From assembly GCA_041665005.1 (NCBI GenBank), contig JBAYJR010000004.1:20669-84668 (forward strand): 64,000 nt of DNA, in the 5' to 3' direction. The notes beneath the pieces were generated by a model, which was given only the letters and a program-made list of their open reading frames with translations, searched no databases and was not told the origin of the DNA. This document shows positions 3,673 through 63,955 of the stretch, one piece after another. The stretch comes from Candidatus Buchananbacteria bacterium. Lineage in GTDB: Bacteria; Patescibacteriota; Patescibacteriia; 2-01-FULL-39-33; JBAYJR01. Position 1 is the first letter of the stretch, and each line of letters opens with the position of its first letter. A program made the translations under genes and the position numbers.

Positions 3673-4737
3673 TCAAAGAATACTCACCAAAAAACGGCCA
3701 GCCTTGCTGGAATTGGGATTGCCCGGAGCGCCCTGAATCAAGTCGACCTGCGCAAAGTTACGATAGAAATAGACATACGGCACGCAGCCAAGTTTTTTTA
3801 AACAACTGCTAAGCAGATAACAAGCCTTGCTCGAACCTTGATAACCATCAATCACTTGGTTGGTTTGGGTTAAGTGGCTTAAGGCATAAATTAACCATGA
3901 TTCTGGGGTTAGACCTTGTTCACCTTTATACTGAGGGTCGGTTTGGAGTTGTTTAAGATAGTTATTGGGTGATTGGTTAGCTTCTGGTTGCTGGCGATGA
4001 GCGATGATTTTACCTTGGCCTTCGGGTGGAAGGTCGGGTAGGTCTTCAAGTAACAGGACTTGCCAGGCTTGGGTGGGTAAAAGTTCTTGTTTGGTTTTAC
4101 CTTGGTGATCAGTTTTGGAATATTCTTGGGGGAAATATGCTAAATCTCCTGTGGCTTCAGCTTCTACCAATCCAGCATCATCAAAAATAAACTTTGTGCC
4201 AATCTCTTTATTAAGCCCTAAGGGTTGATTTTGGGTATCTCGGAGCTCACCTCGCTGATGATGTTCTATTAGAGCCCTGTCATAAGCCTCTATTAGAGAA
4301 CCTATTGGTAAACCAAAAGGAACAAGGATTAGTTTAACAAAGCCTTGTTTAATTTTAGTTTCAAAAAACTTACGTTTTTCTAGCATTATTTCTTCAATCT
4401 GTTCTAGGGTGGGTATGGGGTATTCTTGCTTATCAATTGCTTCAATACCTAATTTGCCAGTGGAGAGGGTTTTTAGGAGGTTGTTTTTACGGAGAATGTC
4501 TACTTGGGCTTCATACTGGGCTTTAAGGTTTTCTGGGGTTAGTTCGGGGGTGTTGAGCCAGAGTTGGTCTTGGAGTTCTTGGAGGGTTTGTTCTAATTTA
4601 GTTTTAGCTTCTCTGATAAAGATAAGATCGTCTGACTTTCCTGTTTGCGGTAAACCGGCTAATTCTTGATTGAATGTTTGTTTTAGTTGTTTAAGAGACT
4701 CTAGTTCAAGGGTAAGTCTTTGACAGGATTGAGGCAT
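3673..4737 (-). CDS. Hypothetical protein, paralog family member 1: conserved N-terminal coiled-coil module plus C-terminal domain 'A'
   Basis: 354-aa ORF with a canonical ATG. N-terminus MPQSCQRLTLELESLKQLKQTFNQEL...; C-terminal ~290 aa are ~70-75% identical to ORFs 6049..7107 and 51558..52631 (shared LGIEAIDKQEYPIPTLEQI, ELLPTQAWQVLLLEDLPDLP, YLKQLQTDPQYKGEQGLTPESW). No signal peptide and no recognisable catalytic motif. Confidence 0.6.
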   Translation of the reverse strand: MPQSCQRLTLELESLKQLKQTFNQELAGLPQTGKSDDLIFIREAKTKLEQTLQELQDQLWLNTPELTPENLKAQYEAQVDILRKNNLLKTLSTGKLGIEAIDKQEYPIPTLEQIEEIMLEKRKFFETKIKQGFVKLILVPFGLPIGSLIEAYDRALIEHHQRGELRDTQNQPLGLNKEIGTKFIFDDAGLVEAEATGDLAYFPQEYSKTDHQGKTKQELLPTQAWQVLLLEDLPDLPPEGQGKIIAHRQQPEANQSPNNYLKQLQTDPQYKGEQGLTPESWLIYALSHLTQTNQVIDGYQGSSKACYLLSSCLKKLGCVPYVYFYRNFAQVDLIQGAPGNPNSSKAGRFLVSIL

Positions 4738-4762
4738 AAAATATTTTTAAAAAATATTATAC

Positions 4763-6037
4763 TTAAATCTGTTTATTTATTTCTAAATACTTAACAAAAG
4801 TTTTAAAATCAACCGGAAGATCTTGGGCTAATCTATCTAAAGGACTTTTGTCTGCAAAAAGACCCTTTCTGCTTGCTATTTTTTCAAATATTTCATTTCT
4901 AAAGCCCCAAGCCTGAGGAGAATCTAAACCAGCTAAACTTCTAACCAAGCCAAAAAATATATCAGTATTTATGGTTGAATTTTCAGTAGTGGCTAAGATT
5001 AGATTTCTTAAATTCCACGCCTCTGGGGAGTCTAATCCCGCCAAACTTTTGGCAAGCTCTTTATTATAATTTGTATTTAATAAATTCCTTCGCCACTCCC
5101 AAGCTTGCTCAGAATCCAAGCCGGTTAAACTTTCAATAGTATTAATTATATTTGCTCCTCCTACTGTTAAACCCAACTTTTTTCTAAACTCCCAAGCTCT
5201 GGCAGAGTCTAAACCGGCCAAACTGGACATAAGTTTGTTACTACGACTAATCTTATTTTGTTTTGTCGTAGCTTTTAAAATATCTCCCCTAAACTCCCAG
5301 GCGGCCGGAGAATCCAAACCTTTTACACTCTCAATTATACGATCCAAATCTACTTGCTGGTCAAATAATTCTGCTCTAAATTCCCAGGCGGCCGGAGAAT
5401 CCAAACCGACCAAGCTAAGGACTAACTCGGGTATATTTTCCTTTTGCTTTAACAATTTTTTTCGCCACTCCCAAGCCTGAGGAGAATCTAAACCATCTAA
5501 ACTACGAGCAATATAACCATTAGTTAATTCGTCCGACAACTTTTCTCGCCACTCCCAAGCTCTGGCAGAATCCAAGCCAGTCAAGCTAGTTGCTATAAAG
5601 CCTTTTCTTCCTACCTGGGCTAAAAGATTTTCTCGCCATTCCCAAGCTTTAGGAGAATCCAAACCAGTTAAACTGATTTCCAAACAACCTTCGGCTACTT
5701 TTTGTGCTAATAACCTTTCTCTTAATTTCCAAGCCGAATCGGAATCAAAATATTTTAATCCCAAGGCAATAAAATTTTGATCAAAATTTTCGGCTAAAAG
5801 TTGCTCGTAATATTCAAGACAATGTTGTTCAAATTCGGCATAAATAAATTCCGGCATTGACCGCTCAATTTTTTTTAAAGCAAATTTAAAATCTTCTTTA
5901 ATTTTCCTAAGCAAAGCTAAGTCCTCGGACTTTTTGGAGTCTAGATCTTTAATTTTAGTTAATTCCAAATCAAACTGTTGTTTAAGCGTTTTAAGGGATT
6001 CTAGTTTGGTAGTAAGTTCTGGGCAAAGTTGGGGCAT
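4763..6037 (-). CDS. Hypothetical protein, paralog family member 2: same N-terminal module fused to ten tandem ~30-aa helical repeats (motif sLxGLDSPxAWEWRxxLL)
   Basis: 424-aa ORF. The first ~35 codons are near-identical at the DNA level to the 5' end of ORF 6049..7107. The remainder is ten tandem repeats (GLDSPKAWEWRENLL, GLDSARAWEWREKL, GLDSPQAWEWRKKLL, GLDSPAAWEFRAEL, ...) resembling TPR/HEAT-like alpha-solenoid units. Confidence 0.6.
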   Translation of the reverse strand: MPQLCPELTTKLESLKTLKQQFDLELTKIKDLDSKKSEDLALLRKIKEDFKFALKKIERSMPEFIYAEFEQHCLEYYEQLLAENFDQNFIALGLKYFDSDSAWKLRERLLAQKVAEGCLEISLTGLDSPKAWEWRENLLAQVGRKGFIATSLTGLDSARAWEWREKLSDELTNGYIARSLDGLDSPQAWEWRKKLLKQKENIPELVLSLVGLDSPAAWEFRAELFDQQVDLDRIIESVKGLDSPAAWEFRGDILKATTKQNKISRSNKLMSSLAGLDSARAWEFRKKLGLTVGGANIINTIESLTGLDSEQAWEWRRNLLNTNYNKELAKSLAGLDSPEAWNLRNLILATTENSTINTDIFFGLVRSLAGLDSPQAWGFRNEIFEKIASRKGLFADKSPLDRLAQDLPVDFKTFVKYLEINKQI

Positions 6038-6048
6038 AAATATTTTAT

Positions 6049-7107
6049 TTAAGAAATACTTACTGCAAACCGGCCGGTACCGTCAGAACCGGAATCGTCC
6101 GGATCATACTGAACCAAGTAGACCCGAGCACGGCCACGGCCGAAGCCGGCGAACGGCACGCTGCCAAATTCTTTAAAACAACTACTAAGTAAATAACAAG
6201 CCTTACCCGAACCCTGATAATTATCAATCACTTGGCTAGTTTGTTCTAAATGACTTAGGGCATAAACTAGCCAGGATTCCGGGGTTAAACCTTGTTCACC
6301 TTTATATTGAGGGTCAGTTTGGAGTTGTTTAAGATAGCTATTGGGTGATTGGTTAGCTTCTGGTTGCTGACGTTTAGCTATGATTTTACCTTGACCTTCA
6401 GCTGGAAGGTCGGGTGAGTCTTCAAGTAGTAGGACTTGCCAGGCTTGGGTGGGTAGAAGTTCCTGTTTGGTTTTACCTTGATGAGTAGTTTTGGAGTATT
6501 CTTGGGGAAAATATACCAAGTCTCCTTTTTCATCAGCCTTTGCGTATTCAACCAAGTCATTAATAGGTTCTCCCTTAAGCTCTAAGGGTTTATTTTGGGT
6601 GTCCAAAAGTTTGCCTTGCTGGTGGTGTTCGGTTAGGGCATCGCCATAGGCCTCTTTCAGAGAGCTAATTGGTAAGCCAAAGGGAACAAGAACTAGCTTG
6701 ACAAAACCTTGATTGATTTTGGTTTTAAAGAATTCTGGTTTTTCTAGAATTGTTTCTTTAATCTGTTCTAGGGTGGGTATGGGATATTCCTGCTTATCAA
6801 TTGCTTCAATGCCTAGTTCACCAGTGGTGAGGGTTTTTAGGAGGTTGTTTTTACGGAGGAGGTCTACTTGGGCTTCGTACTGAGTTTTAAGGCTTTCTTG
6901 AGCTAGTTCAAGAGTTTCTATCCATATTTTGTTTTGAAAGTCTTGGAGGGTTTGGTTTAGTTTGGATTTTATATTTCTGATGAAAATAAGATCGTCTGAC
7001 TTTTTGGAATCGAGATTTTTAATTTTAGTAAATTCCAAATCAAACTGTTGTTTAAGCGTTTTAAGGGATTCTAGTTTGGTAGTAAGTTCGGGGCATTGAG
7101 AATTCAT
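6049..7107 (-). CDS. Hypothetical protein, paralog family member 3 (N-module plus domain 'A')
   Basis: The track ORF 6049..7128 opens with a TTG. The conserved family start MNSQCPELTTKLESLKTLKQQFDLEF... corresponds to the ATG at 7105-7107. The C-terminal domain is homologous to 3673..4737 and 51558..52631. Confidence 0.6.
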   Translation of the reverse strand: MNSQCPELTTKLESLKTLKQQFDLEFTKIKNLDSKKSDDLIFIRNIKSKLNQTLQDFQNKIWIETLELAQESLKTQYEAQVDLLRKNNLLKTLTTGELGIEAIDKQEYPIPTLEQIKETILEKPEFFKTKINQGFVKLVLVPFGLPISSLKEAYGDALTEHHQQGKLLDTQNKPLELKGEPINDLVEYAKADEKGDLVYFPQEYSKTTHQGKTKQELLPTQAWQVLLLEDSPDLPAEGQGKIIAKRQQPEANQSPNSYLKQLQTDPQYKGEQGLTPESWLVYALSHLEQTSQVIDNYQGSGKACYLLSSCFKEFGSVPFAGFGRGRARVYLVQYDPDDSGSDGTGRFAVSIS

Positions 7108-7151
7108 AAAGATAGCAATTAACAACAAAAACTATTAAATCAGTTAACCAA

Positions 7152-30331: not shown

Positions 30332-30610
30332 CAGAAAGCCTGGGGGTTTGGGGGAACCAATTGAACCCCAGGGATTACTTATAAAAATAAACAAATTATC
30401 AGCTAGTAGCGTGCCAGCCCTAGGCTGGTCCGCCTTGGGCGGAAATTTGTGCCCCCAAAACTTTTGCCTGCCCCGCATGGCGGTGGGTCCTTTTGGTTAC
30501 AAAAGGACAAGAATATTAAGGATGACATTCTACTGAAATTTAATCACTTTGAGAGTAAAAGTGACAACACAAATTAATCTGGATTCTGGGCCAAGCCCGG
30601 AATGACAAAA
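30332..30610. repeat. Structured GC-rich intergenic repeat element, copy 1 (putative ncRNA or MITE-like element)
   Basis: About 280 nt sharing conserved blocks with 53974..54312: ...AAACAAAyTATCAGCTAGTAGmGyGCCAGCCCyAGGCTGGTCCGCCtGGGGCGGAAATTTGT... at the 5' side and ...AGTGACAACmyAAATTAATCTGGATTCyGGGyCAAGCCCGGAATGACAAA at the 3' side. It contains a tandem double hairpin at 30414-30443 and a long-range pairing TTTGGGGG / CCCCCAAA. Confidence 0.6.
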
Positions 30611-30617
30611 ATAAATA

Positions 30618-32192
30618 CTATTTCACCATCCCCTGACTTCTCTTTAACCGATGAAAACTGATCGCAAAACGATGAGCTTCGTCGCGAAGGCGTTGCACTA
30701 ATTTTAAGGCTGGTGATTTTTTATTTAATTTAACCGGATATTGCGAACCAAAAGTATAAAGTTCTTCTTCTCGCTTAGCTAGCGCCACCACCGGCAAAGC
30801 CAAACCTAAATCACGCATGACTTGCAAGGCTGCGGATAATTGCGGCCGGCCACCATCTACCATCAGTAAATCTGGCAAAGGTTTTTTTTCGGCCAACAAC
30901 CGGCTGTAACGACGATAAATTATTTCTTTCATCATGGCAAAATCATTTTGCCCGGTCACCGTTTGAATAATAAAGTGCCGATAATTATTTTTATCCGGCC
31001 GGCCGGCCTTAAAATTAACCATCGAACCAACGGCGTTAGTTCCTTGAATTTGCGAAATATCAAAACATTCAATCACTTCTGGCAAACGCGGCAATTGCAA
31101 AGCATTTTGTAATTCTAGTAAAGCCGGCTCCCCTAATTGCGCGGAAATTAAAATATTCTTTTTTACTAATTCCAACAAGGCCAACTTATCCCCCTTTTCC
31201 GGCACAATTATTTTTACTTTTTTCTGCGCCAACTGACTTAAATACTCGGCAATCAATTCTTGTTCAATCAACATTTGTGGCACAATTACTTCACTAGGAA
31301 TTTCTTGTTGAAAATAATATTGCTTAATAAATTCACTAAATTTTTCTAAAGCCAACTCTTTGGTGGCAGTTAAACGATACTCCCGGCGGCCGGAAACTAG
31401 CCCATGAAGCACGTTAAACAATTGAATTACTAATTCCGGGCCAATGACTTGATAATTAATAACATCCTGATTGTAACCTTTAGGTAAAGAGACACGCTGT
31501 TTTTCTGCTAAATTGGTCAGCGTCAAAATTTGGTCGCGACGAATTTTAGCACTTTCATAATTTTGTTGCTGAGAAAAAATTTTCATCTCACGCCGAAGTT
31601 CTCTAATTAATTCCGGAGTTTGTCCTTTTAATAAACTTTCGGCCTTTTTAACATTAGTCTGGTAATCAACGGCACTAATCTGGCCAATACAAGGCGCCGA
31701 GCATTGCTTAATATGATAAAGTAAACAGGCAATTTTAGGTAAACGTTTACAAACACGCAACTTAAATAAGGTATTAGCCAAATAAATTGCCTGACGCCGA
31801 GTTTCACCCGAGACGAAAGGTCCAAAAACTTTTTCCGTGGTTTTAAATTCGCGCACACTAACTAGACGCGGAAATTTATCCTCAGTAATTTTAATATAGG
31901 CATAACGCTGTCCTTCTTTTAATAAAATATTATAAGGTGGCTGATGATCGCGAATTAACTTGGCTTCCATAATCAACGCTTCCACTTCGGTATTAGTCAA
32001 GAAAAAATCAAAATCCGCCACTAACCTGACCAAAGCTCGCGTTTTGGGATCGTGATCTTTTTTTTGCCAGTACGAAGACACGCGCTTGCGTAAATTCTTA
32101 GCCTTACCAACATAAACAATCTTACCTTTTTTGTTTTTAAAAAGGTAACAACCGGGGCCATTGGGAATAATTTTTAATTTATTGCTCAACAT
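30618..32192 (-). CDS. uvrC: Excinuclease ABC subunit C
   Basis: N-terminal GIY-YIG (GCYLFKNKKGKIVYVGKAKNLRKRVSSY), a UvrC central domain and C-terminal RNaseH-like/HhH regions. Confidence 0.9.
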   Translation of the reverse strand: MLSNKLKIIPNGPGCYLFKNKKGKIVYVGKAKNLRKRVSSYWQKKDHDPKTRALVRLVADFDFFLTNTEVEALIMEAKLIRDHQPPYNILLKEGQRYAYIKITEDKFPRLVSVREFKTTEKVFGPFVSGETRRQAIYLANTLFKLRVCKRLPKIACLLYHIKQCSAPCIGQISAVDYQTNVKKAESLLKGQTPELIRELRREMKIFSQQQNYESAKIRRDQILTLTNLAEKQRVSLPKGYNQDVINYQVIGPELVIQLFNVLHGLVSGRREYRLTATKELALEKFSEFIKQYYFQQEIPSEVIVPQMLIEQELIAEYLSQLAQKKVKIIVPEKGDKLALLELVKKNILISAQLGEPALLELQNALQLPRLPEVIECFDISQIQGTNAVGSMVNFKAGRPDKNNYRHFIIQTVTGQNDFAMMKEIIYRRYSRLLAEKKPLPDLLMVDGGRPQLSAALQVMRDLGLALPVVALAKREEELYTFGSQYPVKLNKKSPALKLVQRLRDEAHRFAISFHRLKRSQGMVK

Positions 32193-50531: not shown

Positions 50532-50846
50532 TTAGTAACGACTGCGGCCAAAACCTCTGCTGCTGCCGCTATTGCCACCAGCGCGAGGAGCGCGTGGCTC
50601 CATTGGTCTGGCTTCGTTGACTTTCAAGGCACGGCCTTCAAAGTCTTTGCCGTCAAGCATTTCAATGGCTTTGGCAGCTTCTTCATCAGAAGCCATTTCT
50701 ACGAAACCAAAACCTTTGGATCTACCTGACATCTTGTCAGTTATAATAGTAGCGGATTCTACAGCACCGGCCTGAGCAAAATAATCTTGCAAAGACTGTT
50801 GAGTGGTGCCATAGGATAAACCACCGACATATAACTTTTTTCCCAT
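50532..50846 (-). CDS. RRM-domain RNA-binding protein with Gly/Arg-rich tail
   Basis: ATG at 50844-50846 (the track uses an upstream TTG). RNP2/RNP1 motifs LYVGGL and KGFGFVEM; the C-terminal RAPRAGGNSGSSRGFGRSRY. Confidence 0.8.
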   Translation of the reverse strand: MGKKLYVGGLSYGTTQQSLQDYFAQAGAVESATIITDKMSGRSKGFGFVEMASDEEAAKAIEMLDGKDFEGRALKVNEARPMEPRAPRAGGNSGSSRGFGRSRY

Positions 50847-51041
50847 AAAATGTATATTTGACTTAATTAAATGCAAGTCGACCTCTTCTAAGTCGTTCCT
50901 CGCTTAAGCCCAAATAGATTATGGGCAAGACAAAGGAAAACTACTTAAAACTACTTACAATAAACAGTATAGCACAAAAAATAGTTAATGTCAAGCTGTA
51001 AATTAGTCGCTAATTAACAACTTTTTGTTACTTATTCACTC

Positions 51042-51557: not shown

Positions 51558-52631
51558 TTAAAAAATACTCACCGCAAAACGAACAGATTTTCTAGGACTA
51601 GAATACGTCGGCTCGTTCTCATCCAACTCGACCCGCGCATGACTACGGTAAAAATAGGCATACGGCACGCCGACGGGTTTTACAAAACAACTATTAAGCA
51701 GGTTGCAAGATTTACCTAAACCCTGACTATTATCAATCACTTGGTTAGTTTGTTCTAAGTGGCTTAAGCCATAAACCAACCAGGATTCTGGAGTTAAACC
51801 TTGTTCACCTTTATACTGAGGGTCAGTTTGGAGTTGTTTAAGGTACTCATCCGGCGTTTGATCGGATTCTGGTTGCTGACGATTAGCTATGGTTTTACCT
51901 TTACCTTTAAATGGAAGGTTTGGCAAGTCTTCAAGTAACAGGACCTGCCAGGCTTGGGTGGGTAAAAGTTCCTGTTTGGTTTTACCTTGATGATCATCAG
52001 AAAATTCTTTGGGGAAATATACTAATTCACCAGTGGCTTCGGCTTGGATATAATATTTAGTATCCTCATTATCAATAAACCTACCACCGACATATCCATC
52101 AAGCTCTAGGAGCTTACCTTGAGTGTCCAATAGCTTGCCTTGTTGATAATTTTCCATTAAAGCATTGCTATAAGCATCTATTAGGGAACTAATTGGCAAA
52201 CCAAAGGGAACAATAATTAGTTTAACAAAGCCTTGTGGTATTTTGGTTTCCAAGAGTTCTCGTTTTTCTAACATCCTTTCTTCAATCTGTTCTAGGGTGG
52301 GTATGGGGTATTCCTGCTTATCAATTGCTTCAATGCCTAATTCGCCAGTGGAAATTTTCTTTAGTAAGCCAGCCTTGATGAGAATTTCTTTCTGAAATTC
52401 ATATTGGGCTTTAAGGTTTTCTCGGGTTAACTCAGGAGTTTCTAGCCATATTTTGTTTTGGAGGTCTTGGAGGGTTTGGTTTAGGTTGGCTTTGATGTTT
52501 CTGATGAATATAAGATCATTAGACTTTTTGGAGTCTGAGTTTTTGACTTTAGACAATTCCAAATCAAACTCTACCTTGAGTTGTTTGAGGGAGGCTAGTT
52601 TGGTAGTGAGTTCGGGGCAAAGTTGGGGCGT
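51558..52631 (-). pseudogene. Paralog family member 4 (N-module plus domain 'A') whose ancestral ATG is ACG; possible pseudogene or non-AUG-initiated gene
   Basis: The reading frame continues upstream of the track start (TTG at 52560-52562) and encodes TPQLCPELTTKLASLKQLKVEFDLE, colinear with the MPQLCPELTTKL... starts of the paralogs. The homologous start codon at 52629-52631 is ACG. An in-frame TAA lies 2 codons upstream and the only in-frame near-cognate codons are ATT or TTG. Confidence 0.5.
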
Positions 52632-52641
52632 AGAAATTTAT

Positions 52642-53811
52642 TCAATCTACTTTATCACCATCCCAGATTTTAACAGCCTCATCCCAACTACCCGAAACAA
52701 TGCGGCCATCGGGGAGAACTTGGATGGCGGACACAGAATCAGTATGTCCTTTGAGGGTTTGAGTATTTTGATAGTTGCCTTGGCTATCTGGTTGCCAAAT
52801 CTTAATGGTGCTGTCAAAACTACCCGAAACAATGCGGCCATCGGGTAGGACTTGGAGGGTCCACACAGGGCCATTATGTCCTTTGAGGGTTTGGGTGTTT
52901 TGATAGTTGCCTTGGCTGTCTGGTTGCCAGATTTTGATAGTTTTATCAGAGCTACCCGAAACTATCCGGCCATCAAGGAGGACTTGGAGGGTAGGCACAG
53001 AATTAGCATGTCCTTTGAGGGTTTGGGTATTTTGATATTTGTTTTGGCTGTTTAATTCCCAAATTTTAATAGTGCTATCATCACCCGAAACAATGCGACC
53101 GTCGGGTAGGACTTGGAGGGTCCACACAGGGCCAGTATGTCCTTCAAGAGTTTGAGTGATTTGATAGTTGTTTTGTTTGTCTAGTTCCCAGATTTTAATA
53201 GTGTTGTCATTACTACCCGAAACAATACGACTATCAGGGAGGACTTGCAGAATGAACACAGAATCAGCATGTCCTCTAAGAGTTTGTGTATTCTGATAGT
53301 CGCCTAGGCTGTCTGATTTCCAGATTTTAATAGTTTTATCATCACTACCTGAAACAATGCGGCTATCGGGTAGGACTTGAAGGGTGAGCACAGAATCAGT
53401 ATGTCCTTTGAGGGTTTGTGTATTTTTATAATTGCCTCGTCTATCTAGTTGCCAGATTTTGATAGTGTCATCATGACCACCCGAAACAATCCGACCATCG
53501 GTTAGGGTTTGCAGAGCACGCACAGAATTAATATGCCCTTCGAGAGTTTTAATTTCGTGATAATTTATTTTCTTTTCTACCGTGGTTAGCTCTTGAGGAG
53601 AATTGGCATAAAACTTTTGCCATTCAATTAGCGTAATTTGTTTCCGAAGCTCTTTAAGGGCTTGGTTTAGTTTAATCTTAGCTTCTCTGACCAAAACTAA
53701 ATCCTCTGTCTTGCCTGTTTGGGGTAGACTGGATAATTCCAAATCAAACTGTTGTTTGAGTTGTTTGAGGGAGGCTAGTTTGGTGGTAAGTTCGGGGCAA
53801 AGTTGGGGCAT
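52642..53811 (-). CDS. Paralog family member 5: N-terminal module fused to a seven-bladed WD40 repeat domain
   Basis: 389 aa, MPQLCPELTTKLASLKQLKQQFDLELSSLPQTGKTEDL...WQKFY..., followed by 7 near-identical WD40 units (GHTDSVLTLQVLPDSRIVSGSDDKTIKIW ...). Confidence 0.7.
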   Translation of the reverse strand: MPQLCPELTTKLASLKQLKQQFDLELSSLPQTGKTEDLVLVREAKIKLNQALKELRKQITLIEWQKFYANSPQELTTVEKKINYHEIKTLEGHINSVRALQTLTDGRIVSGGHDDTIKIWQLDRRGNYKNTQTLKGHTDSVLTLQVLPDSRIVSGSDDKTIKIWKSDSLGDYQNTQTLRGHADSVFILQVLPDSRIVSGSNDNTIKIWELDKQNNYQITQTLEGHTGPVWTLQVLPDGRIVSGDDSTIKIWELNSQNKYQNTQTLKGHANSVPTLQVLLDGRIVSGSSDKTIKIWQPDSQGNYQNTQTLKGHNGPVWTLQVLPDGRIVSGSFDSTIKIWQPDSQGNYQNTQTLKGHTDSVSAIQVLPDGRIVSGSWDEAVKIWDGDKVD

Positions 53812-53973: not shown

Positions 53974-54312
53974 GTCAGAAGCACCCTGGGTCTGGGTGAC
54001 AATTGAGCGTCAAGGATTAAGAATGAAAAACAAACAAACTATCAGCTAGTAGAGCGCCAGCCCCAGGCTGGTCCGCCTGGGGCGGAAATTTGTCACCCAG
54101 CAGTTTTGGATACTTCCTGCCTGCCGGCAGGCAGGTTGCTGCCAAAAGTATCAAGAAATAATAAGGAGGGTGTTCTGCTGAGAAGTAGTCACTTCGGGAG
54201 TAATAGTGACAACCTAAATTAATCTGGATTCCGGGTCAAGCCCGGAATGACAAAGGGATTGGATCCTGAATCCGCCGCCGATGGCGGGGCAAGCAAACCA
54301 GGAATGACAAAT
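53974..54312. repeat. Structured GC-rich intergenic repeat element, copy 2
   Basis: Homologous to 30332..30610 at both ends. Double hairpin at 54057-54086; long-range pairing CTGGGTGACAAAT (53988-54000 region) with ATTTGTCACCCAG (54086-54100); an internal perfect palindrome CCTGCCTGCCGGCAGGCAGG; a ~55-nt internal duplication of the GGAATGACAAA end. Confidence 0.6.
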
Positions 54313-54363: not shown

Positions 54364-54795
54364 TTAAAGTTGCCCCGTGGAACCAAATTTACCTCGGCTA
54401 ATTTTATGGGCCTTGGTAATTTCCTGAAACTTAACTTTTTCGTAACGCAAAACCAACAACTGGGCGATTCTAACACCCCGCTTAATGACTACGGTTTTTT
54501 TAGTAATATTTAAAGCGGCTAACAAATATTCATCTTCATCTCCACAAAAATCGGCGTCACCAATGCCAATCGCGTTGGCCGGCATAATCCCTAATTTATG
54601 CGTTGAGCCACGCGCGGCCAATAACACAAAACAGTCTTTAGGAATTTTTAAAATAACATTGAGCGGAATATAACCAATTTTCCCGGGTAAAATTTTAACA
54701 TCAATTCTAGCGGACAAATCCAAACCCGCCGCGCCCTTAGTTTTATAGGCCGGTAAAGGCAAGTTTTTATCTACTCGTTTAATTTTGATTTGCAT
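54364..54795 (-). CDS. dut: dUTP diphosphatase
   Basis: 143 aa, MQIKIKRVDKNLPLPAYKTKGAAGLDLSA..., a dUTPase jelly-roll with conserved motifs. Confidence 0.85.
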   Translation of the reverse strand: MQIKIKRVDKNLPLPAYKTKGAAGLDLSARIDVKILPGKIGYIPLNVILKIPKDCFVLLAARGSTHKLGIMPANAIGIGDADFCGDEDEYLLAALNITKKTVVIKRGVRIAQLLVLRYEKVKFQEITKAHKISRGKFGSTGQL

Positions 54796-56769: not shown

Positions 56770-56844
56770 TGGCTCTGCGAGCTGGACTCGAACCAGCAAC
56801 CTACCGGTTAACAGCCGGTTGCTCTACCATTGAGCTATCGCAGA
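56770..56844 (-). tRNA. tRNA-Asn (anticodon GTT), CCA encoded
   Basis: Manual fold: acceptor TCTGCGA/TCGCAGA, D-arm GCTC-AATGGTA-GAGC, anticodon arm ACCGG-CTGTTAA-CCGGT (GUU), T-arm GCTGG-TTCGAGT-CCAGC, discriminator G, CCA. Confidence 0.85.
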
Positions 56845-56967
56845 ACCAAAAAGCTTATCTTAAATTTTAAACAATCATCTTAAACAACGTACCTACCATT
56901 GCCAGCCCAAGGCTGGTCGGCCTCGGGCCGAAGCTATCGCAGAACCAAAAAGCTTATCTTAAATTTT
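56833..56967. repeat. Tandem ~97-bp duplication of the tRNA-Asn 5' end plus upstream flank, with a 30-nt GC-rich double-hairpin inserted in the D-loop of the fragment copy
   Basis: AGCTATCGCAGAACCAAAAAGCTTATCTTAAATTTTA occurs at 56833-56869 and 56931-56967. Between them CCAGCCCAAGGCTGGTCGGCCTCGGGCCGA (56902-56931) interrupts ...CAATGGTAG / GATAGCT of a tRNA 5'-fragment copy. Confidence 0.6.
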
Positions 56968-57007
56968 ACTCCCTGTATAATAACGAATTTTTTAAAAATC
57001 GTCAAGG

Positions 57008-63229: not shown

Positions 63230-63955
63230 TTAAACAATTACCGCCCGGGCACCTAAAAGTATGCCCCGATTTCTGGCCACATAACTATTTATATAAGTTC
63301 CACCATTTATATTATTATAATAAATCCCTGGTACGACGCCACTCTTAAACTGAGAACCGTTACATAAAGTAATAGTATTAACATCTAAGTTCTGACCGGT
63401 TTCTTTTAAATACTTCAAACCATGAAGCAAGCGTTCTTCAAAAGTTTCCGTTGCTAACTTTTGATCTTTTATTTGTTCGCTAGATAAACCAGTTAATTCT
63501 TTATCGGGTTCTTGGCTATCACGCACCCAAATAGCATAAGCGGTTTTAGTGGTGCGATCAGAATAAATAGAATTAAACATAGCCGCCATATCAAATTCGC
63601 CATAAAGCTCTCCGCGATCAACACTTCTGGTTTTAGCCAAAAGCTGTTCAAAAGTAAGCCCTTGAGCCATAATCAGCAACCGATCAAAGCCCTCCTGTTT
63701 TTCAGGAATGGCCACATCAGAAAAGTCACACTCCAAATCCAAAACTTCTTGATAAAACTTTTCCCAGTCACCAAGGGGCAGACGTTCTCGAAGCTCTTTA
63801 AGGTTATGTTGTAATTTTAGTTTAAGTTCCCTAATAGAAACCAAATCCCCTGTCTTGCCTGTTTGAGGTAGACTAGATAATTCTAAATCAAACCCTGTTT
63901 TAAGCTGTTTGAGGGATTCTAACTTAGTAGTAAGAGTAGCACAATCTTTTTGCAT
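63230..63955 (-). CDS. Paralog family member 6: N-terminal module fused to an unrelated ~180-aa C-terminal domain
   Basis: MQKDCATLTTKLESLKQLKTGFDLELSSLPQTGKTGDLVSIRELKLKLQHNLKELRERLPLGDWEKFY... The 5' ~170 nt are conserved with the WD40 paralog; the rest has no similarity to other members. Confidence 0.6.
   Translation of the reverse strand: MQKDCATLTTKLESLKQLKTGFDLELSSLPQTGKTGDLVSIRELKLKLQHNLKELRERLPLGDWEKFYQEVLDLECDFSDVAIPEKQEGFDRLLIMAQGLTFEQLLAKTRSVDRGELYGEFDMAAMFNSIYSDRTTKTAYAIWVRDSQEPDKELTGLSSEQIKDQKLATETFEERLLHGLKYLKETGQNLDVNTITLCNGSQFKSGVVPGIYYNNINGGTYINSYVARNRGILLGARAVIV

Follow-up and report, generated by a model that had tools for sequence, protein, structure and literature searches.

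A probable mosaic intergenic repeat in a Candidatus Buchananbacteria genome and the 30-nt double hairpin it shares with distant bacterial phyla

Introduction

Bacterial interspersed mosaic elements (BIMEs) of enterobacteria join several palindromic units and other motifs into a mosaic, and palindrome-associated transposable elements (PATEs), which are non-autonomous IS200/IS605 derivatives, have hairpins at both ends, leave no target-site duplication and presumably move as single-stranded DNA. One account of repetitive extragenic palindromes (REPs) describes them as GC-rich palindromes of 20-40 bp, often paired and sometimes inside genes, with a motif, GTAG or CGTC, left unpaired at one end, and gives them as proposed miniature transposons (PMC3733652). 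Short, GC-rich hairpin elements are also found in AT-rich mitochondrial genomes, as double-hairpin elements (DHEs) in chytrid fungi and fission yeasts and as hairpin elements in sponges; these are intergenic, lie occasionally in RNA or protein genes, and can be identical across species, suggesting horizontal spread (PMC10085805; PMC2800124). Rickettsia palindromic elements (RPEs) occur in frame in unrelated housekeeping genes and are translated as an extra peptide (PMC10969869). This study concerns a repeat of about 280 nt that is present twice in a 64,000-nt stretch of DNA (hereafter the window) from a metagenome-assembled genome (MAG) of Candidatus Buchananbacteria (Patescibacteria), and the hairpin modules that the repeat contains, above all a tandem double hairpin (DH).

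The two copies are probably paralogs of a BIME-like mosaic intergenic repeat, in which a scaffold carries REP-like mobile mini-palindromes. The repeat is modular, its modules are widely distributed, and the DH is inserted seamlessly, including in frame into genes. To judge from where their sequences occur, the hairpin modules are foreign to the scaffold and are REP-like selfish elements that turn up in unrelated contexts in many bacterial phyla.

Two copies of a modular repeat

An earlier description of this locus, made from the nucleotide sequence alone (the sequence-only reading), had proposed two related copies of a structured intergenic element in which conserved 5' and 3' blocks enclose a variable middle. 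Both points were borne out. The copies, at 30332-30609 and 53974-54254 (the second extending to 54311), are 79% identical over about 287 columns of a MAFFT alignment, and full-length matches to a profile built from the pair were confined, within the window, to 30332-30610 (E=1e-93) and 53974-54256 (E=9e-96). A partial third match, consisting of the DH alone (56902-56931), had been overlooked. The shared 5' and 3' blocks are identical, while the middle is divergent because the two copies carry different GC-rich palindromes at different positions; copy 2 also has a 57-nt extension at its 3' end. The features of the two copies are as follows.

30332..30609, + strand: composite repeat copy 1, scaffold with three palindromic modules (profile E=1e-93; fold z=-4.3)
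30414..30443, + strand: DH of copy 1, CCAGCC-CTA-GGCTGG TCCGCC-TTG-GGCGGA (pattern match)
30467..30487 (approximate boundaries), + strand: GC-rich hairpin CCTGCCCCGCATGGCGGTGGG, in copy 1 only and taken as a separate insertion
30581..30609, + strand: 3' hairpin module of copy 1, GGATTCTGGG-CCAAG-CCCGGAATGACAAA, of the GGATTCC...GGAATGAC family (family search)
53974..54254, + strand: composite repeat copy 2 (profile E=9e-96; fold z=-3.7)
54057..54086, + strand: DH of copy 2, CCAGCC-CCA-GGCTGG TCCGCC-TGG-GGCGGA (pattern match)
54116..54135, no strand assigned: perfect 20-nt palindrome CCTGCCTGCCGGCAGGCAGG, in copy 2 only
54226..54254, + strand: 3' hairpin module of copy 2, GGATTCCGGG-TCAAG-CCCGGAATGACAAA (family search)
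54255..54311, + strand: extra module in copy 2 only, a diverged duplicate of the 3' hairpin, GGATCCTG...CAGGAATGACAAA, with CCGCC-GCCGAT-GGCGG nested in its loop

The description of the element as GC-rich holds for the copies as wholes, which have 45-51% GC against 38% for the window, but the excess lies wholly in the palindromic modules (65-69%); the remaining scaffold has 36-41% GC and the adjacent spacer 25-27%. Excision of the DH and the middle palindromes brings the identity of the copies from 79% up to 85%. What remains after removal of the modules is a scaffold of about 200 nt that is lineage-specific among the DNA searched. The copies are non-coding, with no ORF (open reading frame) conserved between them, and their indels are not multiples of three. 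The string GGAATGACAAA occurs three times in the window.

The double hairpin as a free-standing module

The DH, CCAGCC-NNA-GGCTGG-TCnGCC-TNN-GGCn'GA, is a discrete module of exactly 30 nt made up of two 15-nt hairpins. A scan of GTDB, with one genome per species, for the exact pattern CCAGCCNNNGGCTGGTCNGCCNNNGGCNGA, for which we estimate a chance expectation of about 0.07, found it in at least 120 stretches of genomes; a single viral contig carries it too. The statistics given here are drawn from the matches listed (131 copies, 125 of them unique), the genome scan being a lower bound. Hosts among these matches include many Patescibacteria classes, Omnitrophota (with a closed chromosome), Planctomycetota and Bdellovibrionales, as well as Cytophagales and other Bacteroidota, Lentisphaerales, a Leptospira MAG, a Verrucomicrobiota MAG and MAGs labelled Gammaproteobacteria. 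Sequences flanking the DH are unrelated from locus to locus, and no fetched locus matches the scaffold outside the 30-mer.

The variable stem position of the DH is Watson-Crick in 117 of the 125 unique listed copies, an A-T variant being common to the copies of Bacteroidota, and the last base of loop 1 is A in 96% and the first base of loop 2 is T in 95%. Around the 125 listed copies the left flank has Y in 93%, then a base other than A, and the right side is A-rich (A-A-A). Pairing between complementary ('kissing') loops, or a single long palindrome, was considered for the DH and rejected, as 14 fully complementary loop pairs were observed where 17.8 were expected.

Neither 72,556 plasmids nor 50,697 phage genomes contained the DH consensus, and blastn of copy 1 against phage and plasmid collections returned nothing. 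The single viral match lies at positions 4944-4973 of IMG/VR contig L129 (L numbers are the labels of individual loci), a predicted viral contig. There, 74 nt separate an 809-aa ORF from the following gene and the DH lies in this spacer, so that phages may be carriers of the module. That the matches fall in nearly all cases in MAGs, and that none came from the plasmid and phage collections, which derive largely from cultured organisms, is what could be expected if the hairpin modules were artefacts of assembly or sequencing. The matches span many independent projects and assemblers, however, and include a single-cell genome and the closed chromosome. Loops vary while stems covary, the modules leave reading frames intact and orthologs have them at the same sites, which reduces the chance of an artefact to a negligible one.

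Insertion of the double hairpin into genes

At each of the seven sites for which an uninterrupted reference sequence was at hand, the insertion measures exactly 30 nt with zero target-site duplication. Direct repeats of at least 6 nt flank 12% of DH copies, against 1.9% in the control, and most copies are without them. A fixed target-site duplication was thus rejected, being missing at the seven reference sites and matched by repeats in 12% of copies only. The DH is inserted preferentially at the loose target Y-S|A-A, and it occurs in spacers between genes as well as in the ORFs and tRNA-gene fragments described below.

About half of the listed copies (67 of 131) are intragenic by the criterion of an ORF of 150 codons or more that extends at least 15 codons to either side. 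In genes the DH is read in all six frames, the commonest peptide being S-A-x-G-G-P-A-x-G-W, and housekeeping ORFs such as those of MiaA, HisRS and the CCA enzyme gain 10 in-frame residues. In the MiaA of locus L035 the DH-coded residues have no counterpart in the solved structures 2qgn and 3d3q, where the alignment leaves an 11-residue gap after the P-loop helix and before the next strand, and the same site is occupied by a DH in two further Patescibacteria. The insert SAKGGPASGW in a HisRS of Giovannonibacteria is shared by six close homologs, whereas most lack it, one of these at 87% identity; the insert has decayed in five other homologs, is shortened to 'SA' in two, and a further 7-residue insertion is found in one. 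Taken together, the patterns of presence, absence and decay in HisRS and MiaA indicate that the insert is translated, that close relatives differ in having it, and that it can decay freely. In P0121, a HisRS 92% identical to that encoded at L020:3012-4391, seven extra residues split the DH peptide, SAK-DARLPDGQ-GPASGW, which suggests a further insertion nested inside the DH.

A second context is the tRNA-gene fragment. Thirteen of the 131 listed copies (about 10%, the one in this window included) adjoin an intact tRNA gene and lie inside its partial duplicate, where the DH falls in the D-loop, the anticodon loop or the T-loop. In the window this concerns the partial third match noted above.

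56902..56931, + strand: solo DH, CCAGCC-CAA-GGCTGG TCGGCC-TCG-GGCCGA (nhmmer E=1.4e-4, match 56899-56933; pattern)
56833..56968, - strand: duplicated 5' fragment of tRNA-Asn with the solo DH (repeat family D10)

The second stem of the solo DH has a compensatory change from C-G to G-C relative to copies 1 and 2. The intact tRNA-Asn(GTT) is at 56770-56844, and the pseudo-copy upstream of it comprises the first 21 nt of the tRNA and 25 nt of leader. Perfect direct repeats of 37 bp (56833-56869 and 56932-56968) bracket a 62-nt insert. On the minus strand the pseudo-copy reads TCTGCGATAGCT-DH-CAATGGTAG, from which it follows that the DH splits the D-loop sequence; once the DH is excised, the flanks are identical to the intact tRNA at 46 of 46 positions. 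Partial tandem duplicates of tRNA ends, with a DH in all but one copy, were also seen at L012, L031, L050, L089, L100 and L116.

A tRNA intron of the group I or bulge-helix-bulge type was considered for the DH. In-silico excision from all 131 listed copies never restored a junction-spanning tRNA, and among them no DH sits in an otherwise intact tRNA gene. As excision never gives a complete tRNA, this possibility was rejected.

A separate observation concerns an insertion sequence (IS) of Candidatus Moanabacter, 1.92 kb long with an ORF for a 556-aa DDE-type transposase and present in at least eight copies of 97-99.9% identity (L019, L023, L055, L057, L066, L080, L102). In each copy a DH lies downstream of the transposase ORF, some 45 nt short of the right end. 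As an autonomous parent of the DH this IS was rejected, the placement of the DH looking like that of a passenger.

Other hairpin modules

The DH is not the only module with a life outside the scaffold. The 3' hairpin belongs to a family of the form GGATTCC(N)G-loop-C(N)GGAATGAC(A), 26-30 nt long, and a search for it gave 21 matches against four in a control with reversed arms. In six genomes the hairpin stands free, as a 29-nt unit in AT-rich spacers (L017; L051, 68-100; L089; L090, 526; L114; L122), the hosts being Daviesbacteria, Komeilibacteria, Moraniibacteriota, other Patescibacteria and one Pseudomonadota MAG. At L097 the loop of one such hairpin encloses another, TCCGCC-TTT-GGCGGA, and the extra module of copy 2 (54255-54311) is built alike.

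Further palindromes show the same independence. Hairpins of the form CCTGCC-N3-6-GGCAGG were found 12 times against once in the control, and solo TCCGCC...GGCGGA hairpins 34 times against four. The copy-2 palindrome CCTGCCTGCCGGCAGGCAGG is identical in a Planctomycetales MAG (L009, 3514) and a Paceibacterota MAG (L079, 6146). Identical or near-identical forms of CCTGCCTGCCGGCAGGCAGG were also noted across distant phyla, including at L047:6592.

Scaffold structure and the question of a functional RNA

The sequence-only reading had seen the same predicted structure in both copies despite sequence change and had taken this as the signature of a functional RNA or of a mobile element resembling a MITE (a miniature transposable element with inverted repeats). 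The helices it named are all present: the tandem hairpins CCAGCC-nnn-GGCTGG and TCCGCC-nnn-GGCGGA at 30414-30443 and 54057-54086, the long-range helix TTTGGGGG/CCCCCAAA of copy 1, its counterpart in copy 2, and the 3' hairpin with the T-G (U-G) wobble of copy 1, which exists on the + strand only. One arm needed correction, the 5' arm in copy 2 being actually CTGGGTGACAATT, which forms 11 contiguous pairs with TTGTCACCCAG and can be extended with one bulge. Compared with dinucleotide shuffles, copies 1 and 2 fold with z=-4.3 and -3.7 on the + strand and with z=-3.2 and -5.4 on the - strand, and the RNAalifold consensus is -58.9 kcal/mol on the + strand versus -42.9 on the - strand.

For the scaffold, 56 pairs were proposed, in a closing helix, the long-range helix of the sequence-only reading (Hb), a long-range helix from RNAalifold (Hc), a middle hairpin, a GUCACU/AGUGAC hairpin and the 3' hairpin. 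Hb crosses Hc, so the two would be alternatives or form a pseudoknot. Between copy 1 and copy 2, six of the 56 pairs have changed on both sides and four on one side while still pairing, and three are broken. The proposed helices contain eight G-U cells when read on the + strand; read on the - strand they have no G-U and nine broken pairs. Because of the six compensatory changes and of G-U pairs being confined to the + strand, the scaffold may be transcribed as a small structured RNA from the + strand.

It would be a larger claim that the whole unit of about 280 nt is one functional structured RNA gene with two paralogs, all hairpins being native to it. The unit is non-coding, without an ORF conserved between its copies, its structure is strong with compensatory changes in the long-range helices and G-U pairs on the + strand only, and even the scaffold, at 36-41% GC, stands above the neighbouring spacer at 25-27%. 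Against this, the DH, the 3' hairpin and the copy-2 palindrome are free-standing in other phyla, including inside ORFs, and both the palindromes and their positions differ between the copies. Since the modules occur on their own elsewhere, much of the sameness of structure despite sequence change would reflect nested palindromic insertion rather than RNA covariation. Nor did Rfam 15 assign a family to either copy at the gathering threshold, the window's only passing matches being two tRNAs; at E<=10 matches in both regions were at chance level, the best (E=0.32) lying outside the element, in agreement with the sequence-only reading, which had recognised no ribozyme core. With neither promoter nor terminator recognised by consensus scans around the copies, and with the uvrC-rsmI spacer of relatives devoid of the element, a single native RNA of this length is unlikely. 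Of the structural conservation claimed earlier, the compensatory changes in the long-range helix stand, and a functional RNA remains a candidate for the scaffold of about 200 nt only, as judged from two sequences; neither extends to the double and 3' hairpins, which are widespread free-standing modules.

Genomic neighbourhood and movement of the whole unit

Both copies begin 8-52 nt from the stop codon of a minus-strand gene. The neighbours are uvrC (30618-32192, - strand), dut (54364-54795, - strand) and a gene with WD40 repeats (52642-53811, - strand), as noted in the earlier description. This position invites the classical REP/BIME role, in which the copies would serve as stabilisers or terminators in the minus-strand 3' untranslated regions of uvrC and dut; REPs are placed mostly downstream of ORFs, between convergent or unidirectional genes, in the account cited for them above (PMC3733652). 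The modules can fold on either strand, and copy 2 has its lowest z-score (-5.4) on the minus strand. Read on that strand, however, the G-U pairs of the scaffold and the 3' hairpin become C-A mismatches (nine broken pairs versus three), the hairpins are not followed by a U-tract, and dut has a terminator-like hairpin with a T-run of its own at 54351-54326, ahead of the element. Such a role for the copies is therefore very unlikely.

The other proposal, a MITE-like unit of 280 nt that moved whole, was not supported. Its appeal lies in the arrangement of the copies, which are dispersed 23.6 kb apart in the same orientation with sharp boundaries of similarity, and in the way assembly graphs break within them. 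Two Logan contigs from an independent assembly of the source sample SRR6484324, L004 and L132, end respectively at 30482, inside the copy-1 hairpin CCTGCCCCGCATGGCGGTGGG, and at 54226, exactly the first base of the copy-2 3' hairpin module. These ends hint at branch points in the population or the genome, which further copies or strain variants at the module boundaries could explain. A repeat that does look like a true MITE is found in Komeilibacteria (L090 and L091), where a unit of about 150 nt is bounded by inverted GTCATYCCGA-type ends, apparently related to the GGAATGAC hairpin family, and encloses a DH in its interior. The 280-nt unit, by contrast, has neither terminal inverted repeats nor a target-site duplication at either copy. 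No third full copy exists in the approximately 9 kb to the right of the window, which leaves a total of two in about 73 kb, and other fetched genomes have none.

No transposase gene is near either. Twenty ORFs scanned within about 8 kb of either copy have housekeeping domains only, among them MetRS, RsmI, TatD, RpoD and DnaG, and no transposase, reverse transcriptase or integrase domain. The earlier statement that transposase, reverse transcriptase and CRISPR genes are missing nearby is borne out to this extent. A RAYT domain was likewise not found in the 20 ORFs, the sequence covered being the 64 kb window and about 9 kb to the right of it. On this evidence, transposition of the 280-nt unit as a non-autonomous element is quite unlikely.

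The exact 5'-block pattern TATCAGCTAGTAGNNNGCCAGCC had zero matches in viral contigs and genome contigs, and a two-anchor pattern had three chance matches only in metagenome contigs (recF and elsewhere). The closest UvrC to the window's own is 66% identical among 5.8 billion proteins searched, and the element is absent from the syntenic uvrC-rsmI spacer of the nearest relatives, whose UvrC proteins are 57-66% identical.

Other repeats in the window concern coding sequence. Paralogous genes at 3673-7128, 51558-53811 and 63230-63955 share 65-82% nucleotide identity over blocks of 200-300 nt (D2-D5). The WD40 gene has internal repeats with a period of 132 nt (D1), and a 211-nt 5' segment is common to it and two other ORFs. 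At 4887-5674, within the ORF 4763-6037, there are 8-9 diverged tandem repeats of about 84-108 nt (D6, D7). A eukaryote-type RNA recognition motif (RRM_1, E=1e-22) is found in the 114-aa protein encoded at 50532-50876.

A probable mosaic of a scaffold and colonising mini-palindromes

The mosaic repeat that we regard as the probable explanation could have come about as follows. A scaffold of about 200 nt with 36-41% GC would have been colonised by at least three families of GC-rich mini-palindromes, namely the DH, the hairpin GGATTCC-stem-loop-GGAATGAC, and the palindromes CCTGCC...GGCAGG or CCGCC...GGCGG. The composite, already with its DH and 3' hairpin, would then have been duplicated within the genome, after which each copy may have gained further palindromes independently. 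The mini-palindromes themselves were perhaps moved in trans via a single-stranded hairpin intermediate, by a putative hairpin-recognising enzyme of the RAYT or IS200/IS605 type.

Several points weigh against this explanation. No mobilising enzyme was identified, the sole transposase found beside a DH being that of the Moanabacter IS, in which the DH appears to be a passenger, and we infer the mobility of the modules from their distribution and from presence or absence among homologs. The explanation leaves it unaccounted for that DH-bearing tRNA fragments are partial tandem duplicates beside intact genes, and that the DH favours loops in DNA able to form hairpins. The boundaries of the middle palindromes are approximate. 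As for the scaffold, its covariation evidence is weak because just two scaffold sequences exist for comparison and both had been seen when the helices were picked. Consensus scans around both copies gave no sigma-70-like promoter and no intrinsic terminator for a + strand transcript, and a scaffold homolog is absent from relatives, from the roughly 9 kb beyond the window and from every other fetched locus.

The DH and the GGATTCC...GGAATGAC hairpin could, more tentatively, represent an undescribed class of ultra-small bacterial mobile element. Horizontal transfer would have carried such a class through uncultured lineages (above all Patescibacteria, Omnitrophota, Planctomycetota, Bdellovibrionales and Bacteroidota), and its seamless insertions would fall in housekeeping ORFs and in the loops of DNA that forms hairpins, tRNA genes and other palindromes being examples. 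The machinery behind them would be one not yet recognised, and we put the class forward as a possibility that falls short of an even chance. A literature search on the DH sequence, its encoded peptides and related concepts gave no description of such a bacterial element.

Whatever the class may prove to be, candidates for GC-rich structured RNA in AT-rich uncultured genomes can be mosaics of promiscuous mini-palindromes, and conservation of structure between copies can stem from nested insertions instead of selection on RNA. Screens for non-coding RNA in the Candidate Phyla Radiation (Patescibacteria) should therefore mask these modules first. The 280-nt repeat alone is of modest interest; the notable result is the pan-phylum element of 30 nt, which, near-unchanged across distant phyla, would be an unusually small and widespread selfish element. 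Horizontal DNA exchange among episymbiotic and ultra-small bacteria can be followed with it as a tractable marker, proteins naturally gain loop insertions from it, and duplicated tRNA fragments are marked by it. It also raises a mechanistic question, namely what moves 30 nt without a footprint.

Comparison with known systems

Among the systems named at the outset, PATEs share with the DH an insertion without target-site duplication, as seen at the seven reference sites. The DH is, however, too short for guide sequences that pair with cleavage sites, its target is the loose Y-S|A-A and not a fixed tetra- or pentanucleotide, and no TnpA gene was found. In size, the DH (2 x 15 nt) and the GGATTCC...GGAATGAC hairpin (26-30 nt) fit the 20-40-bp GC-rich palindromes known as REPs, and the location of the element downstream of ORFs and the existence of intragenic copies also recall REPs and BIMEs. 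The tags differ: the flanks of 125 DH copies are without GTAG or CGTC, and the other family, which ends in GGAATGAC (equal to GTCATTCC on the opposite strand), is without them too. Furthermore, the DH 30-mer is common to many phyla instead of being species-specific, and approximately half of its listed copies are intragenic.

Mitochondrial DHEs resemble the DH in being two adjacent stem-loops in an AT-rich genome, a comparison made by form and not by sequence. DHEs are organellar whereas the DH is bacterial, and the DH differs in its extensive in-frame insertion into ORFs and its strong association with tRNA-gene fragments. Insertion in frame into ORFs, followed by translation, is instead the trait that the DH has in common with RPEs. 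Yet RPEs are about 100-150 bp long, roughly five times larger, and belong to one genus, whereas the DH, with its 30 nt, adds 10 codons, is open in six frames and occurs in many phyla.

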